Positions 1-45,771 of a stretch of DNA of 64,000 nt are shown here, piece by piece. A program made the translations under genes and the position numbers. Every line of letters starts with the position of its first letter. Position 1 is the stretch's first letter. The DNA is from Candidatus Omnitrophota bacterium (GTDB lineage Bacteria > Omnitrophota > Gorgyraeia > Tantalellales > Tantalellaceae): assembly GCA_015231405.1 (NCBI GenBank), contig JADGBR010000003.1:29549-93548 (forward strand), written 5' to 3'. A model generated the notes under the pieces. It made no database searches, was not told where the DNA came from, and saw only the letters and a list, made by a program, of their open reading frames with translations.

Positions 1-2
1 AG

Positions 3-7100: not shown

Positions 7101-10100
7101 GAGAACGGGGAAGTCGTCGTAAAGACGAGGGATAGTTTTCATCTTCTGGTGGTTTTTAAAGGCTCTGTGATCATAAGGGGTCCGGACGGGCGGGATATTA
7201 AACTCGAGCGCGGCGAAGCATGCCTTATTCCGGCATTCTTCGAGGAATTCAGGATATTATCCGAAGGGGGAGCGGAAGTTTTCGATTCGTTCGTCCCTGT
7301 AATGGCGAGGAAGGGTATAAACAGGCTCAGCGTTTCGCGAATGCCGGAAGAGGCACATGCGGGATCTCCGGAAGGACAGAGCAATGAGAAGTCCGAGATC
7401 ATGGAGATCGGGAACTGTTTTGAGATAGGGAAGACAGGCAATATGAGGTACGACAAGGCCATGAGCGAAGCCTGCTATGAAATGCGGGAAAGAAGATATA
7501 TTTCAGGCGAACAGTGGAAAAAGGCGGTTGGCTCGGGAGGTGTATCAATCGAAATAGTTCCAGGCCTGGACAACAGGCTTTCAGATATCGTCGAAAAGGA
7601 AGGGAAAAAGGTCATCCTCATTAACAAGGATGTTATGGATTCGGACAGGATCTCGGACGAGGACCTCCGGGTAATTCTCATGTTCGTACTCTCGAGCGCG
7701 ATAGACAGGATAACATTCGGGCTTTTCGCGGAAGATATAAGGCTGCTTGTCCCGTCCGGTGAATCGGAGGTGATGATACTTCTCAGGGATATGGAAAGGC
7801 TCTGGTATAACGGGCGCGGAGGAGAGAATGACAGGAATATATTCCTGAATATTGTCAGGCGCCTGGACACAAACTACTCTTTCCTTTATTACAACACAAG
7901 TTACGCTCTGCTTGCCGAGGGGTTCGAGGCCTATAAGGTCAATCCCCAGGGCCGGCCCGGTTGGTTAAAACTGATCAAAAAATATATCGAGGACAACGCA
8001 GGCGATGGAAAGACTTACAAATATGACGTTTATGACAGGGAAGTGGCCAGTTTCAAAGCTTCGGATTTCTTCGCCCTCAGACGGTGGTTCCGGGGGTATT
8101 ATTTTTACTGGGCGAACGCGGTGGACGAGCGCGATCCGGGAACCGGGATCAATTTTATTTTTGACAGGGCCCAAGATCCGGAGTTCCCGCTCACTCCTCA
8201 TTCGGCCATCATACAGGCCTTGAAACAGCCGGTCGAGAGCCGCGAAACCGCCAGAGCGATGGGAGATAAGGACGACGGCAAAAAAAGAACTTTTCTCGAG
8301 GATACGCTCCTTGCCCTTCACGATTGGGACGATATTGACATGGAGAGGATAGACCGTGTGTATATAAGGTATCTCAAATCCGGGACTTTCAAGGAGGTTT
8401 ATTACGTGCAGGTCATTTTGAAGGATGACTTCGCTAAACCGCTCGAGTTCGCGCTTCTTGTCCCCAGGGAGACCGTCCTCAGGGCAGGATACGATATCTG
8501 TATTTCCCCGTGGGAAATAGACAAGTTAGAAGAGCTTAATAAACATGACAGCGCGCTCGTCCCGAAGCCCGGGTCCCGTGTCACGACGCTCAGTTTTCAT
8601 GACGAGGGGAAAAAACCTTTCTGGCAGAGGCGGGATATGTACAGCATGCAGTATGCCGGGAGGGACACGGTCGGCCTCCTGGACCTTTACGACCTCGAGG
8701 ACGATTCTAAAATACAGGTCCTACGGGACGTCGTCTCGAAATACATCATCCTTTGGCACAGGAACGGCGGTTACGAGTTCATATGCGACCCCACGAACGA
8801 GAATGTCTGTTTCCTCGACTGGGACGGCCGGATAGTGGATATGGGAGCTCCGACCTACGATTACGATATCGTATTCATAATGAGATATCTCTGGGAAAGG
8901 ATATGTTTCGATTCTGACGGGAGATCGTTATTCAGCTATGGGAAAGACAGAGACGAAGGTAAAGAGCGTATACCTGACAGGAGTTTTATCTTTGACGGCG
9001 TCGTAGACGCGTTTGTGCAGTCAAGGAAAGGGGAGGAGGTCGAGGAGGCAGTTACCGCCGGGATAAGGTTTCTCCAGAGGGTCAGGAACTATCCGTCTGT
9101 GGAACTCCCGGAAGAATTCAAGGAAGCCTTGGACGAATATCTTGCGAAATATGGAACTAAGAAACTTGATTATAAGATTCCGGAGCGTATAGAGTATAAG
9201 CCGCTTTCGGAGGTCAACTGGGATGTGGTGGATAAGCTCTGGCGCGAAACTGTCCCGGATAAAGGCTTCCAGCCGAACGCGGTATCCTATTTCGATTTTC
9301 TGGGAGTGAATTACATGGCGAAGAGTTTTATGAGGGCCATAGCGACGAGGGGTTTTCCCTTGCCGGATGTGAATTTTACGGTCCAAGATCTCATCCCGGA
9401 ACAGGAAAACGCCATCCTTGAGCATATGGAATTCCGTTTCAAGAGGGATATGATAACCCCGGACAGGTTGACGCTATTATTTCTCAAATCACTGGCCCTT
9501 AAATATGAGGGTTCGGGCGGCGAAAACATCATTGAGCTTGGTATAAACAACTCCGACCAGTATCTCCGGATCATTAAAAAACTCCAGAAAATAGCAGGCG
9601 GCCGCTTTACGATGAAGGGGGAGAGAAAGGGGTTAAGGGACAAAGCTGGCCTTGAGAAGATACTGGGTATATCCAAACTGAATACCATAGAGAACATCCT
9701 TACAGGCGCGAACCCGAAAGTGATCGTCATTGATGATAAGATATGGTCATCGCTGTCAGGGGACGGACTAAAAGAGGCTTTCACGATACTGAACGATCTT
9801 TTGGGAAAAGAAAGGAGAGTTGTCATAACGTCGGAGCATTCGATAGGGTCGCTCCTTAACCGTTATGTGAAAGGCACGGGCTTGAAAAAAGAGATGTACG
9901 ATAAATTGTCCTTTATCGCCAGGAACGGCAAGGAATTTTCGCGGTACGCTAAGGGGGAGAACGGGGACCCAGGGACATGGAGCGTGGAGGAAGGCATAGG
10001 GTTCGGGAGCGCTGAAATAATGGCTAAGATAAGCATGGAGACGGGCCTGCCTCTCTGGAGTTTCCTCTGCATAGGCGACAAATGGAGCGTTCCCATGGCG

Positions 10101-11648
10101 TCTCTGCCGGGAACAGCCGGGATAGCCGTGGAAGGCGGGAAGATATTCTATTTTATGCCTGGCGACATAAACGTGACGACCGAAGTCGCCGATAACGGCC
10201 TTCTCAGGGTGCTCAGGCTGCTGGATTCGGCCCTTGATATCGCGGGGCCTCTAAGTTCGTCTTCAAGCTACGTGGCGAAAGTGCTGAAATATTCTCTTCC
10301 GGCCTCGTTCGAGACCCAAAAAGAATTCGAAGGGTACGATGACCTCATAAGGCATACCGCGGACAAAATAGAGACGAAACATACGGAGCTGGAAGACGCT
10401 AAGATGTTCGTGAGCATGAGCGGTATGGTCGGAGCGGGCAAAAGCACGGTCTCGTCGAGGGTGGTAGAGGAGCTCGAGAGAAGGGGCAAGAAGGTCATTT
10501 ATCTCGGCGAGGACGAGGTTGTCATATCGCGCGCTATCCGGCGCGAGTGGGAAGTGAGGCTCGACCCGAAGCTGAACGATTTTTACGCGTACCATGACTG
10601 GGATAAATTGAGGGCGATAATAGGCTGGCTGAAAAGTACGGGGAATGGTAAAAAAACATTTGACGGGCTTTACAATAATAAAACGGGAGAATGCGACGGG
10701 AGACGCGAATTCGATATAGACGAGGATACGATAATAATATTTGAGGGGATATATCCGGAAGATACGGATATTTACCCGAAAGAGCTCTTCAACCTGCGGT
10801 TCCATTTCACTATCCCTTTCGACACGTCACTTGAGAGGGACGTTGCGCGGGTGCTTGAGCGTTCAGACAGAACGGAGATGGAAGCCAGGGTCAAATCAAA
10901 AGCCCTCTGGGGTACTTTGACGGGACTATTCCTAAAATGCAGGGACATGATAAAGAGAGGAGATTGCGAGATAATAGACATGTCCGACCTAATGGCTCCG
11001 AGACTCATTAGGTATAAGAGCACGGCCATGGGTGGGCCCCGGATGAGGAAAAGAAATCCGAAGATCACTTTACCTGAAGGATTTTCCGATACCGAGCCGT
11101 CGGTGGTCCTTAAAAAAGATGTTCTAAAAGAGTATTTAGATGACAAACGGTCGTACAGGATAAGGTACGATACCGCCAGACTTTCACTGTCTCAGCAAAA
11201 AATACTGGAAACGTACGCCTCTGTCATGGGCAGGGATATTAAGCTAGCCCCCTACATCGGTCGAGACGGGAGCATGGAGCCTCTTGTCACGGTGTTCGCG
11301 GAAGGAACGGACGGGTTTAAAGGCGAAGCGAGCGTCGAGGTGAAAGTGCCCGAAGGCTCGATTGGAGAATATTTCCTCAGGATTACGGGGATATTGAATA
11401 TAGCCATGGCTGCTTCGAACCTGGAGGCGGGTAAAGGCGCCACGGTGGGCTCGGAAATGAGCAACGGACCGATAATGGGTTTTATCAGGGAACAGTACAG
11501 AAAGATCACCGGACGTGACCCGGACGCTGACGGCGTTATGTACGATGTATCGAACATGAAAATAGAACTTCCGGAGTCTTACAAAATGAGTATGGCTCTA
11601 ATTGAGGAATTTAACGAACTCGCTTCGAAGGCGCTCGTCGCGGCTTAA
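3..11648 (+). CDS. Giant multidomain protein, 5'-partial. The ORF is open to the window edge; at least 3881 aa lie in the window. It is a mosaic of enzyme-like domains (see the sub-features below).
   Basis: A single uninterrupted + frame runs from position 3 to the TAA at 11646-11648. The adenosine-deaminase-like domain at the start lacks its N-terminal HxH segment, so the gene continues upstream. Multiple recognisable catalytic motifs are present along its length. Confidence 0.85.
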   Translation: MYDDIHTRGVRDLRDIIVDNMPPAEAEAYFLDSIENVARQSFSDGVREVELRFNPFKEMLYTDPLTGAKADIGSYGIILDDLLRKLDDRLSKLEAEADKVFGKDKGPHRVVFMFSIGRDRLEGDRFVKGEWERKFAILSDLKEKYGFAAFYGERLSGVDIAGIEPFGKEQGDTRETISERVRERFHLDQMAVILKRLKDAGYAITTHLGCRYGSSPRDDVMGHAAFVKAHLDAWGDVLDRVGHGKIFTTGKVYSESVDGADSKWAAYDEATAKALVKELRMKGIAIETCPQKLESRSVYRMMRDLPNVSWIEKGVKVVYGTDGSYLSGGCTLSQWITRLMLSFPASGRKYFGTGDMMETVSSVKKSADIEENINKYSAAAWEHFYKADREGTGTALLVTPNEFLRKTIALSGGLLEIKDPYYMRMVCRRVEEIREKNSAGLLNELSVSTGQMREQVSERARGYLEKGERKFTAEQILKDYERVINNLFILQSALMYPKAMLWIFQSLYREMEEFRLKSESEKKETPFLILISATDRIESLRNFFQSLVEEVDTFNYGLTLELGGDGSIVKRTDKVTVAIIENSSDPLVAVQNRELIAEYRNKGLRIVYYGADEKVKIVEMIRKREGEKSLYYRFGITPEDLGRDKVKAVTAGIKNAGYNATRNFSFEVARECFSTMPDDSVSVLIDDDEMLNSLLVSDEEGVKIERPFSFFHNADRYYKDPVLEVLSGNISGDPAIGVAEMLHGNLRDLKEFLERTALMAPGDDYTRKMFEGASQELSENVMIENFNDYGQRATWSGKSPMRRGWAFPRVPREGEERTVGAQFRAFADAADQMFFGHQETRPIGYSPDSYMTDSDNAVVPKMVWSFFGTGGNLMLSKKLINYADMTCMPTGKWRREDVMLEKLIEVFYTPVNMTFLPVRHSRLKTGHRMGITRRDTGELSFVRFLGSAYHGYIFQRFVERIFDLEYIGSMEDFIRVATKASLGEYPGFMEWYLSVKKRRYENLKQYLSDLKDMALEMRAKGFFTEKKYWWNNDPSYAQSVREMEIIVDSIIADMDPAGKDYSEMFAELHKKTEDTTLADERKVVDEMRESYPHMRNYMREHPYSYTDLKRTEEILYRRSAKAGVRTVQVTIMNEAGRMERIRLPLHLRGASRLISVYIASSVYNFLVRNGAGEKIYIACDDEQEARGVVKRVKKTLEISGLDFTVRGNYNVKLVPARRRDLAGIREEERTRERERGRILKNRKLKAPEKGVFMCLDLGKSSAKILVHDGNAVVYSGKKEGSFYYKRTPGDIKREIGVIVDETLTALGYGRDSLRGVTVLVPDIVDKAGNKALYLKGEDLPFPAIVRHDSEGHAAYFRNKGLDNFYLLALGTHPGTQAVIFGKTADEPMEMSRSVVCIDGREKPVELRELLSTQAVLEEGLFKGIIDHADNERKDEAFAIMAQKAEEGDERALSLLNYLGEYTAIHLVNMVRHIRFDKVVFSGGMCRGKFGEMLAENTMRSLKTRGFGWIKPVLMGDEDMQLAGALGGISLAEEYWIGPDEDARRLKVYHKMILSLKDDGDASKWKDVFDRFKEESGAKPGDFEKVRMCFERDGGKYNEFIFHLPLKMAGAEREIAARYLSSWINKFIVSRAAKKVVIDTAIEGMFKEIETSFDAEYNDPNSQVSLARTVGEYWDSGSFRLEQYAQGTDLDIEPYIMEKETALKRDTAINRSVKAIGINVGKYRIKISVVEIMGQGRYKHIGKIKDFNTWEKTDDRSSFDTLYTKLIKGVREVLAENGLSESDVDGIGIAAATAVKNGQPLGRPMGFARGFNREAELAKLKGLRAKMSEDLSGLPVFVRHDGDVECLGMARSKGIRNLLVMKCGNTPGVGFVENDGNLAEGLNEFGKVVTDMGRDALAHDKTGVKGEVASYTAWDGTCKVAKKMGLYEKYNFGPEDPVPGILQGWLNLRTDSTFSEREDARKVFLQSGRETGKFVVEMLDLYPIEHIGVSGGVYFGESGKAMKAGIEEIFKESGLLGKINIIIDNYDMEKMKYNVTLGGAYLVYDAVTLGDGEIKAKDLDHASRLFGISPRILKLKARIAEWKWGGRTRTDGRPSAIRELLGESASDEPAAEAWYGAHPKLPSPVEIFGLDTTLDKVMERVYEVVLGPEVVKRFGKVMPIMFKFLDAAESLSIQCHPGKEQARRLARERPGVYDEFNKPEAFVACTDEGFSSLGGVLPIDDFIKVLKSHFPDIETDYAAEKDKAGYDPALFVKKYVKLVLDKGNGFADIVMPELLNQYNAKNGEVLYSHDGHVNALLSGFIAEIETNSDNTLRAAKTVKERDIPNFLEAADLTPAREELRKFRETDDPAVKSCITTEAFALDLVSPGENGEVVVKTRDSFHLLVVFKGSVIIRGPDGRDIKLERGEACLIPAFFEEFRILSEGGAEVFDSFVPVMARKGINRLSVSRMPEEAHAGSPEGQSNEKSEIMEIGNCFEIGKTGNMRYDKAMSEACYEMRERRYISGEQWKKAVGSGGVSIEIVPGLDNRLSDIVEKEGKKVILINKDVMDSDRISDEDLRVILMFVLSSAIDRITFGLFAEDIRLLVPSGESEVMILLRDMERLWYNGRGGENDRNIFLNIVRRLDTNYSFLYYNTSYALLAEGFEAYKVNPQGRPGWLKLIKKYIEDNAGDGKTYKYDVYDREVASFKASDFFALRRWFRGYYFYWANAVDERDPGTGINFIFDRAQDPEFPLTPHSAIIQALKQPVESRETARAMGDKDDGKKRTFLEDTLLALHDWDDIDMERIDRVYIRYLKSGTFKEVYYVQVILKDDFAKPLEFALLVPRETVLRAGYDICISPWEIDKLEELNKHDSALVPKPGSRVTTLSFHDEGKKPFWQRRDMYSMQYAGRDTVGLLDLYDLEDDSKIQVLRDVVSKYIILWHRNGGYEFICDPTNENVCFLDWDGRIVDMGAPTYDYDIVFIMRYLWERICFDSDGRSLFSYGKDRDEGKERIPDRSFIFDGVVDAFVQSRKGEEVEEAVTAGIRFLQRVRNYPSVELPEEFKEALDEYLAKYGTKKLDYKIPERIEYKPLSEVNWDVVDKLWRETVPDKGFQPNAVSYFDFLGVNYMAKSFMRAIATRGFPLPDVNFTVQDLIPEQENAILEHMEFRFKRDMITPDRLTLLFLKSLALKYEGSGGENIIELGINNSDQYLRIIKKLQKIAGGRFTMKGERKGLRDKAGLEKILGISKLNTIENILTGANPKVIVIDDKIWSSLSGDGLKEAFTILNDLLGKERRVVITSEHSIGSLLNRYVKGTGLKKEMYDKLSFIARNGKEFSRYAKGENGDPGTWSVEEGIGFGSAEIMAKISMETGLPLWSFLCIGDKWSVPMASLPGTAGIAVEGGKIFYFMPGDINVTTEVADNGLLRVLRLLDSALDIAGPLSSSSSYVAKVLKYSLPASFETQKEFEGYDDLIRHTADKIETKHTELEDAKMFVSMSGMVGAGKSTVSSRVVEELERRGKKVIYLGEDEVVISRAIRREWEVRLDPKLNDFYAYHDWDKLRAIIGWLKSTGNGKKTFDGLYNNKTGECDGRREFDIDEDTIIIFEGIYPEDTDIYPKELFNLRFHFTIPFDTSLERDVARVLERSDRTEMEARVKSKALWGTLTGLFLKCRDMIKRGDCEIIDMSDLMAPRLIRYKSTAMGGPRMRKRNPKITLPEGFSDTEPSVVLKKDVLKEYLDDKRSYRIRYDTARLSLSQQKILETYASVMGRDIKLAPYIGRDGSMEPLVTVFAEGTDGFKGEASVEVKVPEGSIGEYFLRITGILNIAMAASNLEAGKGATVGSEMSNGPIMGFIREQYRKITGRDPDADGVMYDVSNMKIELPESYKMSMALIEEFNELASKALVAA
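3750..4620 (+). other. ROK/glucokinase-like (ASKHA fold) sugar-kinase-like domain 1.
   Basis: An N-terminal phosphate loop MCLDLGKSSAKILVHDG and a C-terminal glycine-rich VVFSGGMCRGKFGEML are typical of the ROK/ASKHA fold. Confidence 0.45.
5150..6130 (+). other. ROK/glucokinase-like (ASKHA fold) domain 2.
   Basis: The motifs KISVVEIMGQGRY, DGIGIAAATAVKNG, LLVMKCGNTPGVGFVENDGNL and HIGVSGGVYFGESG match the ROK family motif pattern. Confidence 0.5.
6280..7330 (+). other. Type I phosphomannose isomerase (ManA-like cupin) domain.
   Basis: AWYGAHPKLPSP matches ManA ELWMGAHP. KFLDAAESLSIQCHPGKEQA matches the PMI type I SIQAHP zinc motif. A C-terminal cupin segment GEACLIPA follows. Confidence 0.65.
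8600..8900 (+). other. Aminoglycoside-phosphotransferase/protein-kinase-like catalytic core.
   Basis: LWHRNGGYEFICDPTNENVCFLDWDG matches the Brenner HxDxxxxN motif followed by a DFG-like DWD. Confidence 0.4.
10380..11000 (+). other. Uridine-kinase/phosphoribulokinase-like P-loop NTPase domain.
   Basis: Walker A VSMSGMVGAGKSTVS and the downstream IIIFEGIYPED match the PRK/UK family motif. Confidence 0.55.
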
Positions 11649-11663
11649 ACCAATAGGCAGGAT

Positions 11664-14600
11664 ATGGGATCTAACGGGATAAAGAAGATTTACGGAAAAT
11701 ATATAATAAGAATGGTTTCGGCGGCGCTCGTCTCTCTGATGGTCGCGAACGACATCGGCTACGCCCTTTCCCCGGGATCACGTTTTACCGAAGAGTCCGG
11801 ACCAGGACGGAACGAGCTGTTCAAGGGAGCGGTTTTCAGGGTAGTGTATGAGATCATCGGGAAGTACCTTGAGATGGGTATCGATCCCGTGACGATCATT
11901 GGCGATATAAAGGAAGGGATAGGTATTGTCGAGGAAGCTTTCCGGAGGGAAGAGGGGCTTCCCTCGTCCGCGAAAACCGCCAATTTCGACCCTCTTCTTT
12001 ACGGATTCAATATCGACGAGCTCGAATATTCCCCAGTAGAAAAAGCCTTCAGGCTGCCCATCTACCGGGGAGGCCAAAAGATCCACACCTACAAATTCTA
12101 CATGACCCGAACGCCCGATAAAGAGCCCGATCACACCATCGAACTCCCAACCGGCCACCCCCTCTACGCCAGCATCGAACTCAGGGACAGTCCCCATAGG
12201 GACACCCTTACGCACGGAAACTCAGAAAATTCCTCGAATTCCGGAAATGATGCCCACGGGGCTATTAGACGGAACGTAAGTAACGAAGATATAGAAGCAG
12301 CCATTGACGGAGACTTGGATCTTCAAAGCGTCAAGGATGAAATATCTATGATCGATATCATATTCAACGATATGGCGCTCGATACGAACGTGGATCTTGA
12401 AAAGAAAGCCGAAGAGTATGGTGTAACGGCGGACGAGCTAGTGAAAAGGATAAAACTCGCCAGGGAGGTGTTCTCGGAAGGCCGGAGAAGCCAGGCGAAG
12501 TTCAAGTTATTTAACGCCATTATCAGGAACCCGTCGACATACGCTTTTGGTTACGTGAAGCCTGGGGTCTTCGCGTATTCCCGGGAATTTATAAATGACC
12601 TGGGGCATGATCTTAAAGCGGAATACCTCATGCATGAGCCTCTTTGTTATTACCTGTCGGAATTGATAGGTGAAGAGAAAGGGCATAAATTGGCGAGGGA
12701 GATCCAGTCCTTGTACTTCTACTCCAATTATGGCCCGACGGGAGACAGGGAGTTAGACCCATATGACTGGTTGCGAGGGAAACTGACCGATTTTATACGG
12801 GACTTTACTATACGGGTGCTCGAGAAAGAAAAGAAAATGCCGGAACTTGATCTTGGCGTTCTGGATAAATGGGTTGATGCCCAGGCAAAGGCCGAACAGG
12901 CGCACCTTAGAGCGCTCAGATTGAGATTGACTGAGTTGATCCTTATGAAAGGTTCGCTCAATGAGGTGATAATTGACGAAAAAAGATCGAATTCCGGATT
13001 TACCGCGTCAAATAAACATTTATTGAGCGACATGACCCGGAAGGTCAAAGACCTGGTTAAATTTATCGAAGATGTGCTTCCGGTAATAACCGTAGCTGAG
13101 AGGGAAGGGTTGGGGTATCTGATCAGATCCAGGGCGGAAAATGACAGGTTCAGGAGAGTAGCTATTGAAATAGGCCTCGGGGTCCTTGGGAAAGGGAGTG
13201 GAGAGAAATATCCGGTTCTCGAAATATTCAGCGAACACCTTAAAAAGTTTGAGACGACTCTTAGAGGGGAGAAATCGGAAGTATTTACCCGGCGCCTAGC
13301 CGCGCATATCAAGTGGTGCGAAAGCATAGAAAAAGAACTTGCCCGGCTCCAGAAGGAGTCATTACCATCGGGAGCTTTAGCGAAGAAAGGCGAGCATCGA
13401 GGATCGATCAGCCGGGACACCCAGGAAAAGTCTATGGTCCATGGACCATTGTCCATTGTCCCTGCCTCGCCGGCAGGCAGGCATGGTCAATCGTCCATGG
13501 TCCCCGAAGCACAACGGGTTACACCAAAAATCGGGGATCGCGGGTCGAAGACGTCGCTCAGGGCGAAGATCCTGGCCTGCGCGTTCCTGGTGGGGGTTAT
13601 CCTGGTTGTCGAACCATTGATGGTTTACGGCATGAACTGGTTGATCCCTAAACGGTTCATAGCTGATATTTTCCCGCTCGGGTTCGCTTCGGGCGCCTTG
13701 GAATTCGGTACGGTAAAAACTTTTACGGCTTTTGTCGTATTCAGGTTCTTTGGAGAGATCCTGGCACAGGTAGCCGTCAGGTGGATGAAGGAAGGGATAA
13801 AAGGGATAAGTTTAAAACGGGACATAGACTGGTCGAAGGTGCGGGTCGTATGCTACTTCGCGGGCGGATTCCTCAGCTGGTTCCTGCCTTCCGTTTGGGG
13901 CGTATTTAAGGCCTCTTCGCTTGATCCGCGTTTGTACGGGTTTGCTGATCTGATAGTCGCCGGGCCCATAACGCTGCCCGTCCTCTTCGGTGCGCATCTT
14001 TTCATGAAATGGGCTTATACGCGCGAGAAAATGGATCCGGGGAAGTCGCTCAAAGAAACATTTTACAGGATAGGGTTCACGTTCGTTTTCGCGATAGTGT
14101 ATTGGTGCACTATCCTGGGGATGGTATTTTCGACCGATAGGCCGCTGGACGAGCAGGCGTATATCATCGCATACTTCACGCCGTTCTACGCCATCGCGCA
14201 AAGTTTCGCGGCTAATTTAACCGATGTGGGTAAGGGCGTTAAGATGCGAAAATGGGCGCTGCCTATGATAGCCGCGGCGGTGTTATACAACTTAAGGTAT
14301 TTCTTTTTTAACCTTTCGAACACAAATCTAATAGTCGGGTTCGCGCTCTGGGCTATTCCTATAACGCTCGGGTTCAGACTGAACAAGCCCCTGGGCCCGG
14401 TCTGGGCGACGGCGCCGGAGGAAGACGGCATTTATCGGAAAATATCGGACCATTTGGCCAAAGATCCCGGGGATATGACCATAGTCGTGCCGGAAGCGGC
14501 GTCAGAGAGCGCACTTAAGGGGATTGATAGGATAATAGCTAAATACGGTGATAAGGTAAAGCCCATACTGATCGGCAACGCCGGCGATATAGAAAAAATT

Positions 14601-17600
14601 ATGCTCACGCAAAAACTCGACCATCTTATAAAGTCGAGCCGGAAGGAGATTATAAATATAAACGATAAGGGCGAGATCTATGAGGAGACGGTCAGGATCG
14701 TGGGTGAAGGCCGGGCGAGGATAATCCTCAAAGGAAAAAGCTCGTCGGATGTTCTCATGAAAATGATACTGACCGCGGGCAAGAAAAGACTGCGTGTTCC
14801 GGGGAGCAGCATAACGCATATGCGCCTATTCGAGATGCCGGACGGCGGGCCCTTACTTATGACGGACGGCGGTATAAACGTCATGTCCGATACGGAAGAC
14901 GCTGACAAAAGGGTAGCCAAAAAGATAGCCGGAATAGACAATTCCGTGAGGGTTATGCGCCATCTGGGTGTAACTAGGCCCTTAGTGACCATTCTGGCCG
15001 AAGGGAAGAACGGCGAAAAATGGATACGTGAGGACGCCGAGGGGATAATTTCAGAGCTTAAGAAGAGGGGAGTCGATCCGGGGTTTGATATCGAAGGGCC
15101 CGTATCGCTCGGGGAAGTATACGGCCGAGGTAACTTATCCCGGCGCATCCTTGTTTTTCCTTGGATAGGCCCCGCGAACATCATTTATAAAGCAACGGCC
15201 GGATTCAGGAGGGAACCGGAACATGTGAAAGATATTCCGGTACGAACAGCTTCCGGGAAAAAGGGAAAACTCAGCGTCTTCGAATATCAAATTGACGGCA
15301 CGAAGCGTTATCTTTCCGTGGCCGTCCCCCCTCCGGGGGCGGACCTGGAGGAAAAAAAGGAATTCATAAAAAGATCCAGCAGGATGCTTTTTAAAAAATA
15401 TGGCATAGGAAAGCCTAAAGTGGCTATATTGGATTTCACCGAGCAAGCTGAAAATTTCGAGAAAGTGCCTACGATAAAGGACGGGATAGCGCTCAAGAAG
15501 TACTTTTCGGAAAGAGACGCCGGATGCGTGGTCGACGGCCCAATGGCATACGACGTCGCTGATTCGAAAGAGGCGGCCAAGGCGAAGGGGTATGACTCCG
15601 TAGTCGCTGGGGACGCGGATATGTATTTCGCCCCGGATAACGATACCGGGAACATGCTTGAATCCCTGTATAAATATTCCGGCAAATTGAAGTTGGGTTG
15701 GAACGCCTCCGACCTTTCATACGGTGGCCTCGCGACGGACAATGGCGAACCGGTTTTTGTGGTGGTCCCATCGAGATCGGACTCTGAGTTCCACAAAGAG
15801 CGGTCGCTAGACGTCGCGGCGGAACTCATGTCACGCGACCGGGAAGAAGGAGTTAACATCCGCCCGGAGGGCAAAGGAACCCCCGGAAAATCTCCCCCCG
15901 GCGGATCCATAGCTGAAGCGCTCAAGGTGGTCAACGTGTCGCTGCTCAAGGAAGGAACTTTAGGGAATATATTCACGCGTCGGGAATTCGCCCAGAAAAG
16001 GATCAATGCCAAGAGACAGGCACAATATTCGCCTGGCACGGTTGCGGCGGAGCTGGATTCATTGACGAGAATAGGGGTACTGGACCGTGTTCGTGACGGC
16101 CTGGCCTATAAATATTACGTGAGGGACTGGTACAAGGACATAAGGCCCGGGGTAAGGAAAAAGTTACAAGTTATGGTCGAAAATGCCGTGAGGGCAAAGG
16201 AAGTCAGGGCAAATCCTCTGGATGAGAAAGATCTTTTATTCCTGCAGAACGCCCTGGTGAAGATGATGAAACGGTATTACAGCGCCACGGTCTTTTCGAT
16301 AATACCCGAAAAACAAAAAAACCGTGTTATGGAACAGATCGTGGACATGGAATGCCATTTTTGCGATACACCGCGTGAAAGGAAGAAGTGGACCGCCTAT
16401 CATACTTACATGGCCGGCGAGCCCGAGAGGGAGACAAGGATAGTGCGATACAACAATAAGGTCATAGGTCTTATGCTTTTTAAGCGGGATACCGGAAATG
16501 ACTGTATCAGAATATTGAGGATGAAGATCCACCCGGAATGGGAAGACAAGGGCGTAGATCATTACCTTGTGGACACGGTTAAGGCGGAGATGGTCGAAGG
16601 CGGGGGTTTGGGGAAATGCCGGGTCATATTGAACGAGAACGACATCAATGCCTGGGAGTTTTACAGAAGCGCGGGATTCAGGTCTCTGGAGAAGAGAGGA
16701 GAGGGCGCCCGCGGATTGGATGTAATGGAGTTCATGCCTGGAATTTCTACCGATGAGAACGGATCGAGTCAAGAAGATGTTCTCTTGGTCAGGAACGCCA
16801 TAGAGAGCGCGTATCACGACCTCGCCGAACGGTTCATGGAAGTGCCGGTTGAGCGGCTCGACAAGGATATGGATCCCGAGCTTATCAAGTCGGGGTATAA
16901 GTACACTGCCAGGACAAGCGGACGAGAAGTGGAATTTTCCGATATGTTCGAGGCGGGCGATCGGGAAGGTAAAAAGGCGATTGGAGCCATGAGGATCGTA
17001 TACGGTGAGGTTTATACGTCAGGCGAGATAGCCGAGGCGGCTAAAGAATACGGGATGCGTTACAGCTCCCCGGAATATATCAACCGTGTAGCCGTGATCA
17101 ATGGTGAAGTGGCAGGGTACATCAGATGCCGGCTTCTGATGAACGGGATGAAAGTTGATTTTGAGGAAAGGATATTTGATCAGAGGTATAACGGCATAGG
17201 GATCGGTGATCTTCTGATAAACGATTTGAAGATACTTCTTTCGACGCGGGCATACTCAGGGTTCGGTAAATGCGTAACATCTTTTCGTTCGCCGCAGGGA
17301 CGGCGCATGGTTGACTATTTGGGTAAGCACGGATTCAGGCCCGTTAACGGGCATAATAAGAAGTTTATTCTTGAAGGTGCTGACATCACTAAGATAAGCG
17401 GCCCCGAAGGGACTATCATCACGGATACCCTTTTCCAGGGAGGCGCGAGCCCGATATTGACTTACGGGCAACCCTATGAACTCCCGGAAGACGAGGAAGG
17501 CGGAACCGGACATGATAAGGATCCGCTGGACGGCTTGTACTTCATGACCGAAAGGCCCGAAATGGCTGAAAGAACGGTCAATTTCATAAAAACATTCCTT

Positions 17601-20600
17601 TTGTATCGCAAGCAGGTGACATTGGTTAACCGAGACACATATACGGGAGTAGACCGCTATCTGTCGATATCTGAAAGCTCCTGGAGTTATATGAAGGATA
17701 ATTTCAGGTTAAGCGAGATACCTCTTTATGTCTATGAGGAGAAAGTGCCGGGAAGCAGCAACACAAAACCGTTCATGGTAGCTCTAAGAATCGACGAGAA
17801 CCTGAAAAGCAACCTGATGTGGTTCGATAAGATGGAGGGCAGATGGATATCTGACGTAGCAAAGCAGATCATTATCAAAACCGGGGACGGGAACGATAAT
17901 ATCAAGGCTGTCTATATACCGCTTGAAGAGAGTAATCCGCCGGGAATGGCTGGCGCGAGGCCCAGAGACTTCCTTAAACTGGAATTTGATGCGACGAACG
18001 GAGACGGCTCAGGCAAGGATTTCGCGGAAGAGATAACGAGGCTTTTAAAGGAAAAATACAATCAGCCCGGGAGCGGTCCCCGTCTCAGCCTAAAGATGTC
18101 GGTAGTATCTCTCCCCGGATCGGCTTTATTCCGTCATATAGAGATCAGGAAACCGCAAAACGTATTAAAGCTGATCAACGGTTCCGAGAAATTGTCTAAC
18201 GGCAGGTTTACGGCCGAGGGGCTCTTCCTGGAAGGGGTGTCGTCCGGGCGAAGAGTGAATGGCCAAAAGATTAAGTCACAGGTTGACGCCCGTATAGATC
18301 TTGAGGCGCTAGCGGATCTTGGGATGATTGATAAATGGGGGGATAACCTTTTTAGCCTCAGGGACGATTACAAGGCTCTGTCAAAAAAGGATAGGATGAC
18401 GATAGAAAAGGAGCTGATACATTTATCCCATGCCGAGAACGGATCTTTCGATATCATGGAAAGGAATCTCAGGCTGACAATAAAAGATCTTATTAGCCGC
18501 AATGTTCGTCAAGTCTCCAGCGAGGATGTAACCCCGGGATCAGGGATAAGGAATGGGTGGACAGTAGGCACCGAGTTAGTAATGGCATCATCTGACGGTT
18601 ATCTGGAACAGTGTGCCGGGATAAAGTCTCTAACCGGACAAGGGGGGCTCAAGTCAAAGGGAAGAGGAAGCTTCAAACAGGAAATGAGAACAATGAAAGA
18701 TCTTCTGGCAGGGGTTGGAGTAGAAATGACAGCCGCGCTTTATGGACGCAGGGTAGTCGGTTATGTGATCATCCGTAAAAGAGAAGAAGAGAGGAGCGTA
18801 GAGATACTCGATATATGTGTCCACCCTCTCTTTTATGAGCGGGGAGTCGACGAGAACCTTTTAAAATGGGTCCTATCCTTGTTAAGTCCGGGGGAAAAAG
18901 GATATAAAAAGGTCTTTTACGATATAGCGGCATCGCCGGATGAGAAAGAACGATCTTTTGAGAGGCTGGGATTTTATGAGGAAATACCGGAGGAGGCCGA
19001 TCCCGTGATCGAGCGCGGAAAGATGAGGCTGGTGGCGAGGCCCAAAGAAGCGTCGGACGGGGATAGGAAAAAACTTCCCGGCGGCGCATTGCACAAGGCG
19101 GTCGCGTGTATCGGAGAGCATGATGATATTTTTGGGAACAGAGAAAATCCGTTTACGTTAAGAAAATTTATGCGATTTAGAAAATATTCGTACAATACTG
19201 TGCTGACAGAAGTCAGGGCCTTAATAAAACTTGGTATCCTGGAAAAAGCCGGGAAGAAAGGGAATGTCCCGCTTTACAGGGTCACCCGGCGTTTTGAGGA
19301 CGCACCTCCGGACGTCAGGTTCAAAGTATATGAAGCCCTCGAACGCGGGTTGGCCGAAAAAATGATACACGCGGCGCCCACCAGGGACGAACTGAAAATG
19401 GTCCGTTACGAGATCGATCACACGCTTGCGCCGTATGAGACGGTTGAAAGGCCAAAAGCAACGGCAAAACCGGCGGAAAAAATAATAACCTTCCCGGTTA
19501 ATGGAACACACGCTGAAGCAGTTGTTACAGAGGTCATTAACGATATGAAAGCCCCAGAACCGGCAGCATATAGCGGTTTCATGAGCGGCATGATGGATAT
19601 GGTATTCAATGAAACAAGGGATTTCACGCCGATACTTTCAGGGTCCGGGTATCTAAAGAGGACAAGTGAGATATTAGAAGATCTTATGGCGCTTGAAAAA
19701 ACGATATACTTGTCCATTCTTGAGGAATCAATGCGTAGCCCGGCGAGGTCAAAACGGTTGACACAGGCTAAAGAGCTCGTCGAAATGAGCAATGGAATGA
19801 CGGTAAAAGCGGCTGAAGTCGTAAAGGCCTGGCGGAAGACAGGGTATATGGCGGTCGAGCTTGACCCCGACGAGGTGAAAGCCGGGATCGGGCTCAGTAT
19901 AGGGAGGCGTCTTTTCGCCCTTGGTGAGGGGGAGGACGAGTTTTACGGACTTTTGTCCTGGACTTTCAATAAACTGAACGAGATCCTGGCCGAAGACGAC
20001 TTGTTCGGAGGGATGTTCCTGAGGGATACGGAACGTTCGATCATTAAACTCCGTGAACTTATGACCGACCTCCGAATCACCGTGTTCCGGGAATATTTCC
20101 TGGAATATTCATTTGCAGGAAACATGTTCAGGGATAATAAGGACATGATGGAACGTTTCGATCTGGATATAAAAGCCAATTTCAGGGAGAGGTACGACGT
20201 CTGGTATGAGTCGAAATGGGAGAGGATAAACGATCTCGCGAAATTCGCCGGCGATATCCTGGACGCCGCCGAGAAGATAAGCGATTTAAGAAGATACGAC
20301 TTCCCCAAAGCGAAGGGTTTCGAGCTGGAAGAATTGAAAATGGAACTCATTAGTGCCCTCAAATTTAACAGGCGTGTATGCCGCGACCAGTTAGACCTGG
20401 ATTATCTGGATGAACAGGTCTTACCGCTGATGATCTTCGGCGGGGACGGAAAAGGCGTGGATCATTACAGGATGATCTGGTCGGGAGCGATGACCATGAT
20501 AAGAAAACGGTTCAAAGGCATGTCGAGAAAAGAGCTTACCGCCCAGGATAGTAATATCGTGGAAGGCGGGCTGGCGGTTCCCTTTATGCTTATGGGGGGT

Positions 20601-21461
20601 ATGGTAGACCTCAGGATCGAGAATACCGGCAACGTTCTTGGATTTCTTCGCGACTTGCATTTTGTGCCGGAAAGGGCGGGGGATCATAGTGACAGGCCTG
20701 GTCCTCAAGCAGCGGCCTTGGACTTCCAGAACGAATTTTTCGTTCCGGGAAAAACCGAAGCCGCCGGTCCAGGAAAGAATCCTTCCTATAAAAAAGTTCC
20801 GGGCATCAGGATAGGGCCTTTGACAGCCGTACAGGAAGCAAAACACGCTCTGTCTTTTACCAGCAATGTCAAACTCTGGAAAAATAAAGATAAAGAGGAC
20901 GCTTCCTTCATAGCCCTTTCCACCGGGTGGATCAAAGGTTACGAAAGAGGAGGCGCTCAGCATAACGGAGGCTTGAACCGGGCTATTTCGTCAGTAAGGA
21001 ATTACTGCGAGGCTAAAGGGATAAAGTTGATAGAAGGTGACGACGCGGCCGTCGCGGAAGAGGTTAAGGCCATGAAAAGCCGTAATAAAGCCGCTTCCGG
21101 AGTAGTTCTTGCGGGCGAACGTTGCATAGGGCTTATAGAAGAAGCATTCTTGGAAGAGCTTACCCTCCGTGACGATGAAAAGAAAAAAGTTCTCCTTGGC
21201 CTGGTCGATAACAGCCGGCTTGAGGAAGAAAGCTATGTGCCTCTTATGGAACAGCTGTCGCTTATGATAAAGCTTCTAAGATACCAGGAGAGATATCCTG
21301 ACTACCTTTTAAGAAGAAAAGACCTTCTTGGGAAAAAATTTGACAGAGAAAACCGCCTTGGCCTGGAATTCGATCCGGAAAGGTGGGTCGTGAAATTCAA
21401 ACCCGCGAAGATGGACGTAGAGTCACTTCGGCCTCTGTATTTCGCCCAGATAGCCGCATAG
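11664..21461 (+). CDS. Giant (3265 aa) signal-peptide-bearing membrane protein with a phosphotransacetylase-like domain and three GNAT acetyltransferase domains.
   Basis: The ATG at 11664 lies 15 nt after the upstream stop. The N-terminal hydrophobic signal is MVSAALVSLMVANDIGYA. The single ORF runs to the TAG at 21459-21461. Confidence 0.85.
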   Translation: MGSNGIKKIYGKYIIRMVSAALVSLMVANDIGYALSPGSRFTEESGPGRNELFKGAVFRVVYEIIGKYLEMGIDPVTIIGDIKEGIGIVEEAFRREEGLPSSAKTANFDPLLYGFNIDELEYSPVEKAFRLPIYRGGQKIHTYKFYMTRTPDKEPDHTIELPTGHPLYASIELRDSPHRDTLTHGNSENSSNSGNDAHGAIRRNVSNEDIEAAIDGDLDLQSVKDEISMIDIIFNDMALDTNVDLEKKAEEYGVTADELVKRIKLAREVFSEGRRSQAKFKLFNAIIRNPSTYAFGYVKPGVFAYSREFINDLGHDLKAEYLMHEPLCYYLSELIGEEKGHKLAREIQSLYFYSNYGPTGDRELDPYDWLRGKLTDFIRDFTIRVLEKEKKMPELDLGVLDKWVDAQAKAEQAHLRALRLRLTELILMKGSLNEVIIDEKRSNSGFTASNKHLLSDMTRKVKDLVKFIEDVLPVITVAEREGLGYLIRSRAENDRFRRVAIEIGLGVLGKGSGEKYPVLEIFSEHLKKFETTLRGEKSEVFTRRLAAHIKWCESIEKELARLQKESLPSGALAKKGEHRGSISRDTQEKSMVHGPLSIVPASPAGRHGQSSMVPEAQRVTPKIGDRGSKTSLRAKILACAFLVGVILVVEPLMVYGMNWLIPKRFIADIFPLGFASGALEFGTVKTFTAFVVFRFFGEILAQVAVRWMKEGIKGISLKRDIDWSKVRVVCYFAGGFLSWFLPSVWGVFKASSLDPRLYGFADLIVAGPITLPVLFGAHLFMKWAYTREKMDPGKSLKETFYRIGFTFVFAIVYWCTILGMVFSTDRPLDEQAYIIAYFTPFYAIAQSFAANLTDVGKGVKMRKWALPMIAAAVLYNLRYFFFNLSNTNLIVGFALWAIPITLGFRLNKPLGPVWATAPEEDGIYRKISDHLAKDPGDMTIVVPEAASESALKGIDRIIAKYGDKVKPILIGNAGDIEKIMLTQKLDHLIKSSRKEIININDKGEIYEETVRIVGEGRARIILKGKSSSDVLMKMILTAGKKRLRVPGSSITHMRLFEMPDGGPLLMTDGGINVMSDTEDADKRVAKKIAGIDNSVRVMRHLGVTRPLVTILAEGKNGEKWIREDAEGIISELKKRGVDPGFDIEGPVSLGEVYGRGNLSRRILVFPWIGPANIIYKATAGFRREPEHVKDIPVRTASGKKGKLSVFEYQIDGTKRYLSVAVPPPGADLEEKKEFIKRSSRMLFKKYGIGKPKVAILDFTEQAENFEKVPTIKDGIALKKYFSERDAGCVVDGPMAYDVADSKEAAKAKGYDSVVAGDADMYFAPDNDTGNMLESLYKYSGKLKLGWNASDLSYGGLATDNGEPVFVVVPSRSDSEFHKERSLDVAAELMSRDREEGVNIRPEGKGTPGKSPPGGSIAEALKVVNVSLLKEGTLGNIFTRREFAQKRINAKRQAQYSPGTVAAELDSLTRIGVLDRVRDGLAYKYYVRDWYKDIRPGVRKKLQVMVENAVRAKEVRANPLDEKDLLFLQNALVKMMKRYYSATVFSIIPEKQKNRVMEQIVDMECHFCDTPRERKKWTAYHTYMAGEPERETRIVRYNNKVIGLMLFKRDTGNDCIRILRMKIHPEWEDKGVDHYLVDTVKAEMVEGGGLGKCRVILNENDINAWEFYRSAGFRSLEKRGEGARGLDVMEFMPGISTDENGSSQEDVLLVRNAIESAYHDLAERFMEVPVERLDKDMDPELIKSGYKYTARTSGREVEFSDMFEAGDREGKKAIGAMRIVYGEVYTSGEIAEAAKEYGMRYSSPEYINRVAVINGEVAGYIRCRLLMNGMKVDFEERIFDQRYNGIGIGDLLINDLKILLSTRAYSGFGKCVTSFRSPQGRRMVDYLGKHGFRPVNGHNKKFILEGADITKISGPEGTIITDTLFQGGASPILTYGQPYELPEDEEGGTGHDKDPLDGLYFMTERPEMAERTVNFIKTFLLYRKQVTLVNRDTYTGVDRYLSISESSWSYMKDNFRLSEIPLYVYEEKVPGSSNTKPFMVALRIDENLKSNLMWFDKMEGRWISDVAKQIIIKTGDGNDNIKAVYIPLEESNPPGMAGARPRDFLKLEFDATNGDGSGKDFAEEITRLLKEKYNQPGSGPRLSLKMSVVSLPGSALFRHIEIRKPQNVLKLINGSEKLSNGRFTAEGLFLEGVSSGRRVNGQKIKSQVDARIDLEALADLGMIDKWGDNLFSLRDDYKALSKKDRMTIEKELIHLSHAENGSFDIMERNLRLTIKDLISRNVRQVSSEDVTPGSGIRNGWTVGTELVMASSDGYLEQCAGIKSLTGQGGLKSKGRGSFKQEMRTMKDLLAGVGVEMTAALYGRRVVGYVIIRKREEERSVEILDICVHPLFYERGVDENLLKWVLSLLSPGEKGYKKVFYDIAASPDEKERSFERLGFYEEIPEEADPVIERGKMRLVARPKEASDGDRKKLPGGALHKAVACIGEHDDIFGNRENPFTLRKFMRFRKYSYNTVLTEVRALIKLGILEKAGKKGNVPLYRVTRRFEDAPPDVRFKVYEALERGLAEKMIHAAPTRDELKMVRYEIDHTLAPYETVERPKATAKPAEKIITFPVNGTHAEAVVTEVINDMKAPEPAAYSGFMSGMMDMVFNETRDFTPILSGSGYLKRTSEILEDLMALEKTIYLSILEESMRSPARSKRLTQAKELVEMSNGMTVKAAEVVKAWRKTGYMAVELDPDEVKAGIGLSIGRRLFALGEGEDEFYGLLSWTFNKLNEILAEDDLFGGMFLRDTERSIIKLRELMTDLRITVFREYFLEYSFAGNMFRDNKDMMERFDLDIKANFRERYDVWYESKWERINDLAKFAGDILDAAEKISDLRRYDFPKAKGFELEELKMELISALKFNRRVCRDQLDLDYLDEQVLPLMIFGGDGKGVDHYRMIWSGAMTMIRKRFKGMSRKELTAQDSNIVEGGLAVPFMLMGGMVDLRIENTGNVLGFLRDLHFVPERAGDHSDRPGPQAAALDFQNEFFVPGKTEAAGPGKNPSYKKVPGIRIGPLTAVQEAKHALSFTSNVKLWKNKDKEDASFIALSTGWIKGYERGGAQHNGGLNRAISSVRNYCEAKGIKLIEGDDAAVAEEVKAMKSRNKAASGVVLAGERCIGLIEEAFLEELTLRDDEKKKVLLGLVDNSRLEEESYVPLMEQLSLMIKLLRYQERYPDYLLRRKDLLGKKFDRENRLGLEFDPERWVVKFKPAKMDVESLRPLYFAQIAA
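13540..14400 (+). other. Polytopic transmembrane block (about 7-8 predicted helices) inside the giant protein.
   Basis: Successive hydrophobic stretches include LACAFLVGVILVV, FPLGFASGALEF, VVCYFAGGFLSWFLP, LIVAGPITLPVLFGA, IGFTFVFAIVYWCTILGMVF, WALPMIAAAVLY and IVGFALWAIPITLGF. Confidence 0.6.
14475..15790 (+). other. Phosphate acetyl/butyryl-transferase (Pta/PTB)-like domain.
   Basis: TIVVPEAASESALKG matches Pta IVFPEGxDxRVLKAA. ITHMRLFEMPDGGPLLMTDGGINV is Pta-like. MAYDVADSKEAAKAKGYDSVVAGDADMYFAPDNDTGNMLESL matches Pta AGxANVLIFPxLxAGNIxYK. Confidence 0.6.
16260..16710 (+). other. GNAT N-acetyltransferase domain 1.
   Basis: VIGLMLFKR...IRILRMKIHPEWEDKGVDHYLVDTVKAEM...INAWEFYRSAGF is a GNAT motif A/B pattern. 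Confidence 0.5.
16900..17350 (+). other. GNAT N-acetyltransferase domain 2.
   Basis: VAGYIRCRL...RYNGIGIGDLLINDL...MVDYLGKHGF is a GNAT-like pattern. Confidence 0.4.
18600..19000 (+). other. GNAT N-acetyltransferase domain 3.
   Basis: VVGYVIIRKREEERSVEILDICVHPLFYERGVDENLLKWVL...ERLGFYEE is a GNAT motif A pattern. Confidence 0.45.
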
Positions 21462-21557: not shown

Positions 21558-21725
21558 TTATCCTTTGATTATAGCTTCTGTAGGACAAACCGCCGCGCAA
21601 GCCCCGCAATCCGTGCATTTTTTTGGATCGATCTTATAAGGGCTGCCTTCGGATATCGCCTCAACGGGACATTCCGGCTGGCACTGCCCGCAAGATACGC
21701 AATTATCGGTAATTTTATAAGCCAT
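21558..21725 (-). CDS. 2x[4Fe-4S] bacterial-type ferredoxin, 55 aa. It is absent from the supplied ORF track because it is shorter than 60 aa.
   Basis: Manual translation of the reverse strand gives MAYKITDNCVSCGQCQPECPVEAISEGSPYKIDPKKCTDCGACAAVCPTEAIIKG, with two canonical CxxCxxCxxxCP clusters. A strong SD AGGAGG lies 7 nt upstream of the ATG, and the stop is a TAA. Confidence 0.8.
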   Translation of the reverse strand: MAYKITDNCVSCGQCQPECPVEAISEGSPYKIDPKKCTDCGACAAVCPTEAIIKG

Positions 21726-45342: not shown

Positions 45343-45771
45343 ATGTTCACAGCCGATATGGTAATGACAAAAAAGGTATACAAAGTCAAAAAAGGCCAGC
45401 CTCTTAAGGATGCCATGGAGATCATGCTGAGCAAAAAAATAAGGGGTATTCCGGTCGTCGACGACGCGAACAACCTTGTCGGTATAATCACGGAAAGCGA
45501 CATGCTCAAGATCCTTATAGACGACGATATTAACGATGCTGATCCGGTCGAGAATTTCATGACTAAAGACGTTAAATGTTTCAATGCCAGGGACAAGATT
45601 ATGGACATATTTAATTATTTCATAGAGAGTCCCCGGAGGAGAGTGCCGATATTAAAGGACGGTAAGCTGGTCGGGATAATCTCGCGCAGAGACCTGATCA
45701 GCCTGATCCGAGACCTCAAAAAACGGGACTTGCAACGGACCAACTGGTGGGCAAGGATCATCCCCGCGTAG
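45343..45771 (+). CDS. CBS-domain pair protein (142 aa).
   Basis: SD AGGAGG upstream. IRGIPVVDDANNLVGIITESDMLKIL and RRVPILKDGKLVGIISRRDL are two CBS motifs. Confidence 0.8.
   Translation: MFTADMVMTKKVYKVKKGQPLKDAMEIMLSKKIRGIPVVDDANNLVGIITESDMLKILIDDDINDADPVENFMTKDVKCFNARDKIMDIFNYFIESPRRRVPILKDGKLVGIISRRDLISLIRDLKKRDLQRTNWWARIIPA

Follow-up and report, generated by a model that had tools for sequence, protein, structure and literature searches.

A phosphotransacylase module with a tandem C-terminal domain in a predicted membrane-anchored, GNAT-bearing protein of Candidatus Omnitrophota

What would a bacterium do with a protein of 3,265 amino acids (aa) that appears to combine a membrane block, a phosphotransacylase and several acetyltransferases in a single chain? 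The question is raised by the second open reading frame (ORF2) in a stretch of 64,000 nucleotides from a Candidatus Omnitrophota bacterium (assembly GCA_015231405.1, contig JADGBR010000003.1, forward-strand positions 29,549 to 93,548), which we refer to as the window. A sequence-only reading of the window had taken ORF2 for a membrane-anchored multi-acyltransferase, possibly one that acetylates envelope polymers or secreted substrates. Our analysis retains the domain content of that proposal, namely a membrane block, a module of the phosphotransacetylase/phosphate butyryltransferase (PTA/PTB) family and three GNAT-like modules, and finds tethering at the membrane reasonable, but does not retain the envelope or secreted substrates. 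The phosphotransacylase module has an insert that is a second copy of its C-terminal domain, and it is predicted to lie in the cytoplasm together with the GNAT-like modules.

ORF2 is a genuine gene under purifying selection. It is an exact match to NCBI MBF0215924.1, [quoted passage not shown], which is carried on a 178,336-bp contig of a metagenome-assembled genome (MAG); the accessions of three more genes of the window belong to the same MAG. An orthologous fragment from an independent JGI metagenome (P0001, locus L002) is 74% identical to ORF2 across 264 codons, with proportions of synonymous and nonsynonymous differences (pS and pN) of 0.60 and 0.16 and a dN/dS of ~0.15, from which we conclude that selection maintains the protein. 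A word-index protein homologue search returned nothing for aa 620-1430 or for the transmembrane (TM) block, a result limited by the index, given that the 74%-identical fragment exists. A scan of genome contigs with a single protein sequence gave no matches.

The phosphotransacylase module and its relatives

The domain that had been read as Pta/PTB-like from sequence alone is indeed recognized as such by the PF01515 (PTA_PTB) profile, which scores 50.7 bits on the whole of ORF2 and 61.4 bits on the excised piece, against a gathering cutoff of 24. The NCBIfam phosphate butyryltransferase models match as well (best E = 2.6e-37, NF004472). An AlphaFold2 (AF2) model of aa 920-1405 (pLDDT 89.6, pTM 0.90) has two alpha/beta domains with a cleft between them, as in phosphate butyryltransferases. 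The best Foldseek match to this model was the PTB of C. acetobutylicum (CaPTB; 7vg9, E = 4e-19, TM-score ~0.66 on target length). Together with the enzymes of L. monocytogenes (3u9e) and E. faecalis (1yco) it occupied the range from 4e-19 to 7e-14, and PTAs and the PTA domains of MaeB ranked next. Phosphate butyryltransferases are thus the best matches both in sequence and in structure. By its profile scores, given below, the module belongs to a divergent subfamily and is not a classical phosphate butyryltransferase equivalog.

Ten residues of CaPTB are conserved across PTBs and PTAs or are the proposed base (PMC9706017), and we tested all of them in ORF2: K186, D217, K228, N250, K254, S279, R280, D282, S283 and E285. 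Eight are identical, the exceptions being E285, whose counterpart is displaced by one position, and K254, to which we return. The last four of the identical residues form the catalytic and phosphate-binding loop Ser279-Arg280-x-Asp282-Ser283, which in ORF2 reads S1370-R-S-D-S1374. Eight columns are invariant across long and classical PTBs in our alignment (A1). The conservation of these residues suggests that the module is catalytically active and would interconvert acyl-phosphate plus coenzyme A (CoA) with acyl-CoA plus phosphate.

The ORF2 module differs from the classical enzymes in having about 470 aa rather than about 300, and in being embedded in a membrane protein of 3,265 aa. It shares its length with a rare group of proteins that we call long PTBs, all of which carry an insertion of ~145-170 aa between the beta-hairpin and the remaining C-terminal domain of the classical PTBs (alignment A1). 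When the two segments of the enlarged domain were compared with hhalign, copy 1 and copy 2 matched with a probability of 74-76% (E = 2-3e-5, 81-96 columns), against 0.1% for a control with the N-terminal domain (domain I), which shows the insert to be a duplicated C-terminal domain. The two copies have degenerated in complementary ways. Copy 1 retains the canonical hairpin motifs (ITHMRLF and MTDGGIN) and an invariant PWIGPANIIYKA motif, in which N and K have the spacing of CaPTB N250 and K254 (N-x-x-x-K); the rest of it is degenerate. Copy 2 has the motifs LDFTEQ, EKVP (with its K), VDGPMAYD, AKAKG and DTGN, which match K186, D217, K228 and N250, with a Ser at the position of K254. A counterpart of K254 is thus found only in the degenerate copy. 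CaPTB dimerises through its C-terminal domains (PMC9706017), so that the duplicated copy in a long PTB may, by analogy, stand in for the partner subunit. The tandem-duplicated PTB is a structural variant, not described before, of a fold known from a classical enzyme of fermentation.

Fourteen proteins came out of an exhaustive HMMER search (E ≤ 1e-30) against 1.84 billion representatives. Long PTBs occur both as stand-alone proteins of 420-500 aa (P0003, P0004, P0006, P0007 and P0008) and inside large proteins (P0002, with 3,824 aa; P0005, with 3,187 aa; P0013, P0014 and P0015). Eighty metagenome loci contained ordinary PTBs for the most part, and the long form only in a 465-aa stand-alone protein (L009) and a 1,984-aa ORF (L010). 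A MAG labelled uncultured Planctomycetales has an ORF longer than 6,866 aa with MutS domain V and a long PTB (L004; the frame, 3-20600, is free of stops and runs off both ends of a 20.6-kb stretch of a 24.9-kb contig), so that the long PTB is not confined to Omnitrophota.

At least seven further large proteins contain the insert-bearing PTB of ORF2, joined to unrelated partners, among them methyltransferases, LMWPc and DOT1 (P0002), HATPase_c (L010 and P0013), Fic (P0015) and MutS_V (L004). Since it alone is homologous between ORF2 and its large relatives, the long PTB is a module that is mobile within a domain-shuffled class of proteins. In P0005 a TM block, different from that of ORF2, likewise stands directly before the PTB module; most long PTBs have no adjacent TM block.

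Four stand-alone genes are in Spirochaetales or Spirochaetia MAGs (L005-L008). One lies beside an acetate-kinase-family gene and the alpha, beta and gamma genes of a 2-oxoacid:ferredoxin oxidoreductase (L005); a second adjoins the alpha and beta genes of such an oxidoreductase, with a methylmalonyl-CoA-mutase-family gene nearby (L006); a third adjoins an aldehyde:ferredoxin oxidoreductase (L007). These are contexts of acyl-phosphate fermentation, and because of them the free-living long PTB looks like a working fermentation enzyme.

One further relative, the 840-aa metagenomic representative P0011, has a signal-peptide-like start (MRHKIIQIISITLICAFASQGLAWGQ) directly before its long PTB at aa 62-497. 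It has no further hydrophobic or TM segment, and export would put a CoA-dependent enzyme outside the cytoplasm.

The membrane block and the GNAT-like modules

Hydropathy analysis resolved eight clear TM helices and a weak one (aa 666-683) at 13566-14378, in agreement with the block of about eight that had been placed at 13540-14400. The signal peptide reported at the N-terminus is likewise visible, by eye and by Kyte-Doolittle hydropathy only: aa 1-35 have four K/R in the n-region, a 12-residue hydrophobic core and the sequence GYA/LS. From TM3 on, the numbers of K and R in successive loops alternate (5, 1, 5, 1, 4, 0), with the K/R-poor loop at aa 824-832 being acidic, and by the positive-inside rule we therefore predict that aa 906-3265 (~2,360 residues, including the PTB and the three GNATs) are on the cytoplasmic side. 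Two models, one with a signal peptide and nine TM helices and one with no export and eight, have this cytoplasmic tail in common. They differ only in the side of aa 36-634, which are outside in the former and inside in the latter. Acyl-CoA and acyl-phosphate occur in the compartment thus predicted, which favours activity of the modules. The same location speaks against a direct action on envelope or secreted substrates, the part of the sequence-only reading that we abandon; the TM block, moreover, resembles no acyltransferase or transporter in Pfam at E ≤ 1.

The TM block (aa 620-930) matched no Pfam family at E ≤ 1, including MBOAT, acyltransferase-3 and PlsY, and its sole NCBIfam match, to NuoJ, was at chance level (E = 0.086). 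A single relative was detectable: P0095 (locus L089), a fragment of 135 aa on a 647-bp contig, with 40% identity. The two share a strongly conserved WFLPS...ADxxxAxPITLP...YW...PxYAIxQ pattern, which suggests a conserved and so far undescribed family of membrane domains. The TM block of ORF2 was compared with that of P0005, and homology was rejected, since no relationship was detectable. From two sequences, AF2 gave only an unusable model of the ORF2 block (pLDDT 41). We take the block to be mainly an anchor.

Three GNAT domains had been proposed downstream of the PTB, and two of them, GNAT1 and GNAT3, have profile support. GNAT1 scores 29.6-30.1 bits on the excised piece, above the gathering score; GNAT3 scanned alone is at or just below the gathering scores (20.1 vs 20.7 and 24.2 vs 27). 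GNAT2 is below threshold, and it is its motifs that argue for it. GNAT1 and GNAT3 are similar to each other by BLASTP (E = 8e-6), and in an alignment each of the three has the GNAT beta4-alpha3 core and an [FY]xxxxGF that resembles motif B (FYRSAGF in GNAT1, DYLGKHGF, or YxxxxGF, in GNAT2 and FERLGF in GNAT3). For GNAT1 and GNAT3 the best NCBIfam match is rimI (TIGR01575, E = 2e-9), with which they share the core and motif B; they differ from it in score (37.6 bits vs a cutoff of 86.4) and in the acetyl-CoA loop. The Q/R-x-x-G-x-G/A form of this loop, which the sequence-only reading had proposed to look for in each GNAT, is present only in GNAT2 (R-Y-N-G-I-G). In its place GNAT1 has E-D-K-G-V-D and GNAT3 has Y-E-R-G-V-D, both non-canonical. 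GNAT2 had no match among PDB sequences, and neither had the middle region of ORF2.

A self-BLASTP of ORF2 gave no internal repeats, but Smith-Waterman alignment with shuffles revealed three copies (w1, w2 and w3) of a repeat of ~95 aa, in which we recognize by eye a PGG, an FT-R-F and a helix-turn-helix-like stretch. Each copy sits before a GNAT or before the C-terminal 705 aa. This C-terminal region matched nothing in Pfam, NCBIfam or the PDB sequences. The same databases (Pfam at E ≤ 1) gave no match for aa 36-634.

A tethered source of acyl-CoA and the alternatives

The interpretation that we favour, tentatively and as having a little less than an even chance, is that ORF2 is a membrane-tethered acylation assembly on the cytoplasmic side, with the PTB supplying or regenerating acyl-CoA for the GNATs. 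ORF2 would then be an inner-membrane-anchored multi-enzyme polypeptide of a kind that is numerous in Omnitrophota. The PTB would make or regenerate acyl-CoA from acyl-phosphate beside the tethered GNATs and would recycle the CoA that these release, while the GNATs would N-acylate cytoplasmic or membrane-proximal acceptors. Candidate acceptors are proteins, the GNATs being RimI-like, or amino-sugar phosphates from the co-directional ORF1, which has ManA, ROK-like and kinase domains. We infer the coupling between PTB and GNATs, the acceptors and the activity of the GNATs, which for GNAT1 and GNAT3 is doubtful on account of their loops. A parallel in concept is PduL, a phosphotransacylase that is held close to CoA-dependent enzymes inside bacterial microcompartments for local cofactor recycling (PMC4784909). 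PduL has an unrelated fold, however; it is confined by a protein shell and not by covalent fusion, and the direction proposed for ORF2, from acyl-phosphate to acyl-CoA, is the reverse.

Several observations weigh against the tethered assembly. Among the relatives listed above there is no pairing of PTB with GNAT, and only the PTB module is common to them, so that a dedicated PTB-GNAT partnership is not conserved. The module falls far short of the equivalog cutoffs of TIGR02706 and NF004472 (118 and 128.5 bits vs 410.5 and 399), and its canonical C-terminal copy has Ser in place of K254. With E or Y for Q/R and Asp for G/A in their loops, GNAT1 and GNAT3 may bind CoA poorly. The topology comes from hydropathy and the positive-inside rule only, and a real signal peptide at the N-terminus would put five K/R before TM1 on the outside; the start of P0011 hints that some members of the long PTB family may be exported. 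Finally, no function can be assigned to about 1,300 aa of ORF2.

The best of the alternatives, which we nevertheless think unlikely, is that the PTB-like module is a sensor of acyl-CoA or CoA, as in MaeB, that regulates the GNATs or the unannotated regions, with GNAT1 and GNAT3 being pseudo-enzymes. MaeB, like ORF2, has a PTA/PTB-fold domain fused into a larger protein, and that domain binds acetyl-CoA as an allosteric, documented non-catalytic sensor (PMC7902834). The MaeB domains do match the ORF2 model structurally (Foldseek E ~4e-10), and the non-canonical GNAT loops, the loss of K254 from the canonical copy and the low NCBIfam scores would all fit this reading. The MaeB domains, however, are without the critical catalytic residues (PMC7902834), whereas ORF2 keeps the S-R-x-D-S loop (as S-R-S-D-S) together with K186, D217, K228 and N250, and has no malic-enzyme partner. 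Its best structural and sequence matches are catalytic PTBs rather than MaeB, and the fermentation contexts of the stand-alone long PTBs also speak for catalysis.

ORF2 could also be a shuffled mosaic or polyprotein of independently acting enzymes, perhaps cleaved after synthesis, in which case the fusion would have no mechanistic meaning. This comes next in plausibility and is again improbable, though such a mosaic would be typical of Omnitrophota long proteins. In its favour, the long PTB is combined with quite different partners elsewhere. Of the sequence clusters of Omnitrophota long proteins, 80% are singletons, with variable architectures (10.64898/2026.06.07.730766), and proteolytic processing of giant proteins has been discussed by West-Roberts et al. 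(10.1101/2023.11.21.568195). Pfam and NCBIfam scans of ORF2, on the other hand, found no peptidase domain or cleavage motif, and an organised assembly is suggested by the regular order of its parts (repeat, GNAT; repeat, GNAT; repeat, C-terminal region). CoA thioesters, moreover, are used by the PTB and the GNATs alike.

A more specific proposal, to which we give a rather small probability, is that the PTB and the three GNATs constitute a self-contained tethered unit that runs on acyl-phosphate and catalytic CoA, with the duplicated copy replacing, within the chain, the dimer partner on which free PTA/PTB enzymes depend. In a more radical version of it, the membrane block itself would be a new acyl-phosphate-dependent acyltransferase in a PlsX/PlsY-like arrangement.

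It is still less probable that the catalytic modules are outside the cytoplasm, or that the membrane block passes acyl groups outward, with targets in the envelope, among secreted molecules or in prey cells. The signal-peptide-like starts of ORF2 and P0011 would agree with such an arrangement, as would the literature on Omnitrophota long proteins, 39% of which have a predicted signal peptide and TM helices and for which extracellular roles have been proposed (10.1101/2023.11.21.568195; 10.64898/2026.06.07.730766). It conflicts with the loop charges, which place aa 906-3265 inside in the eight-TM as well as the nine-TM model, with the cytoplasmic nature of acyl-CoA and acyl-phosphate as metabolites, and with the lack of any Pfam match of the membrane block at E ≤ 1, MBOAT and acyltransferase-3 included.

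PlsX belongs to the PTA/PTB fold superfamily and works with the membrane enzyme PlsY by way of acyl-phosphate. This, and the position of a membrane block directly before the PTB in ORF2 and of a different one in P0005, could point to a PTB that makes acyl-phosphate from acyl-CoA and a membrane block that acylates a lipid or lipid-linked acceptor, which we consider the least probable explanation because the ORF2 block has no sequence similarity to PlsY or any acyltransferase family and no usable model, it shows no detectable relationship to the block of P0005, and most long PTBs have no TM block beside them.

Neighbouring genes and the class of long proteins

Long co-directional ORFs follow one another in the window (Table 1), and among them ORF2 alone has a polytopic TM block. 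Searches of the window gave neither tRNA genes nor Rfam matches, and no phage or viral relatives were found for it. ORF1 ends 15 nt before ORF2 on the same strand, so that a functional link to its sugar-phosphate enzymes is possible. It contains an apparently intact class I mannose-6-phosphate isomerase at aa 2071-2423 (TIGR00218, 146.8 bits vs a cutoff of 116.2) and ROK-like, FGGY-like and P-loop kinase pieces. ORF2 and ORF3 are probably not one transcription unit, because a small ferredoxin-like ORF lies between them on the opposite strand. A further long ORF has 2,973 aa. Whether the window's long ORFs and the relatives have an N-terminal or a C-terminal domain in common was tested, and both ideas were rejected, no similarity having been found.

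ORF3, whose start is signal-peptide-like, has a weak SprT-like Pfam match, HExxH zincin motifs, AAA_5 domains, a vWA-like DVSGSM motif and a long low-complexity stretch rich in G, K and Q; NHL/beta-propeller repeats take up more than 3,000 aa of it. In a gap between long genes there are a small CBS-pair-like ORF (45343-45771, + strand) and, convergent with it, an ORF that carries a Nudix box (GHLEDGETELEAALRETEEETG; 45780-46226, - strand); the two adjoin DUF6973, DUF2779 and DUF2130 genes.

Table 1. Coordinates of the features discussed (window positions, except for the two stand-alone long PTBs, which are numbered on their own loci)
Feature	Residues (aa)	Nucleotides	Strand	Basis or remark
ORF1	≥ 3,881	3-11648	+	runs off the 5' end of the window
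ORF2	1-3265	11664-21461	+	ATG to stop, uninterrupted, 3,265 codons
Signal-peptide-like N-terminus	1-35	11664-11768	+	by eye; Kyte-Doolittle maximum 1.55
N-terminal region	36-634	11769-13565	+	no recognisable domain; membrane side ambiguous
Polytopic membrane block	635-905	13566-14378	+	hydropathy
Loop	707-726			K+R 5; predicted cytoplasmic
Loop	750-758			K+R 1
Loop	782-801			K+R 5; predicted cytoplasmic
Loop	824-832			K+R 1
Loop	853-863			K+R 4; predicted cytoplasmic
Loop	885-886			K+R 0; tail after TM9 comes next
Long PTB module	925-1395	14436-15848	+	PF01515; NF004472
PTB C-terminal-domain copy 1	1047-1181	14802-15206	+	alignments A1 and A2; hhalign
PTB C-terminal-domain copy 2	1182-1364	15207-15755	+	motifs given in the text
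S-R-S-D-S loop	1370-1374	15771-15785	+	matches CaPTB 279-283
Repeat w1	1409-1506	15888-16181	+	Smith-Waterman vs w3, z = 13.2; 0/500 shuffles reach the score
GNAT1	1569-1680	16368-16703	+	PF00583, PF13673, PF13508; E 5e-7 to 1e-5 on piece
GNAT2	~1785-1895	17016-17348	+	PF00583, E = 0.023; 15.4 bits vs cutoff 20.7
Repeat w2	2168-2248	18165-18407	+	weaker copy; Smith-Waterman vs w1, z = 5.8; 0/500 shuffles
GNAT3	2343-2449	18690-19010	+	PF13508, E = 4.6e-5; RimI-like
Repeat w3	2469-2560	19068-19343	+	Smith-Waterman with shuffles
C-terminal region	last 705	19344-21458	+	no recognisable domain
Ferredoxin-like ORF, 2x[4Fe-4S]	55	21558-21725	-	two CxxCxxCxxxCP motifs
ORF3	6,951	22010-42865	+	MBF0215926.1, "AAA family ATPase"
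Stand-alone long PTB, L005	433	1380-2681		neighbours given in the text
Stand-alone long PTB, L006	433	9983-11284		neighbours given in the text

Membrane-anchored, multi-enzyme long proteins that carry GNATs have already been described from Omnitrophota (West-Roberts et al. 2023, bioRxiv 10.1101/2023.11.21.568195; bioRxiv 10.64898/2026.06.07.730766), and 94% of these long proteins bear TM helices or a signal peptide (10.64898/2026.06.07.730766). ORF2 resembles them in coming from an Omnitrophota MAG, in its signal-peptide-like start and TM helices, in its several unrelated enzyme domains including GNATs, and in its position among ORFs of at least 3,881, 6,951 and 2,973 aa. It differs in size, having 3,265 aa where the two studies catalogued proteins of at least 10,000 and of over 30,000 aa, and so falls well below the 10,000-aa threshold of the catalogue in 10.64898/2026.06.07.730766; it also has no SecA, dockerin or C39 domains. 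The same study reports a co-occurrence module of methyltransferase, HATPase_c, GNAT and HAD, and another of sugar metabolism that includes ROK. The partners of the long PTB in large proteins (methyltransferases, HATPase_c, Fic, LMWPc, DOT1 and MutS_V) overlap the methyltransferase/HATPase_c/GNAT module.

The claim that a Pta domain inside a giant membrane protein is undescribed was therefore overstated, given at least seven large proteins with a long PTB and the known GNAT-bearing long proteins. A PTA/PTB domain goes unmentioned in the main texts of 10.1101/2023.11.21.568195 and 10.64898/2026.06.07.730766 and in one supplementary text of the latter; a further literature search found nothing. 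What is new in ORF2 is the combination of domains, whereas the class of long multi-enzyme proteins to which it belongs has been described.

The Omnitrophota long proteins make up a large and mostly unexplained part of the protein universe, and we know of none with an assigned enzyme activity. ORF2 is of a workable size, and its well-modelled PTB, whose active site looks intact, stands beside GNATs that share its cofactor. It thus offers a tractable case in which to ask whether domain fusion in such proteins reflects metabolic channelling or no more than mosaic accretion. The long PTB is also of interest in itself, occurring on its own in Spirochaetales MAGs and as part of large proteins elsewhere. 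If the duplicated C-terminal copy does take the place of the dimer partner, this built-in partner would make the long PTB portable between giant proteins.

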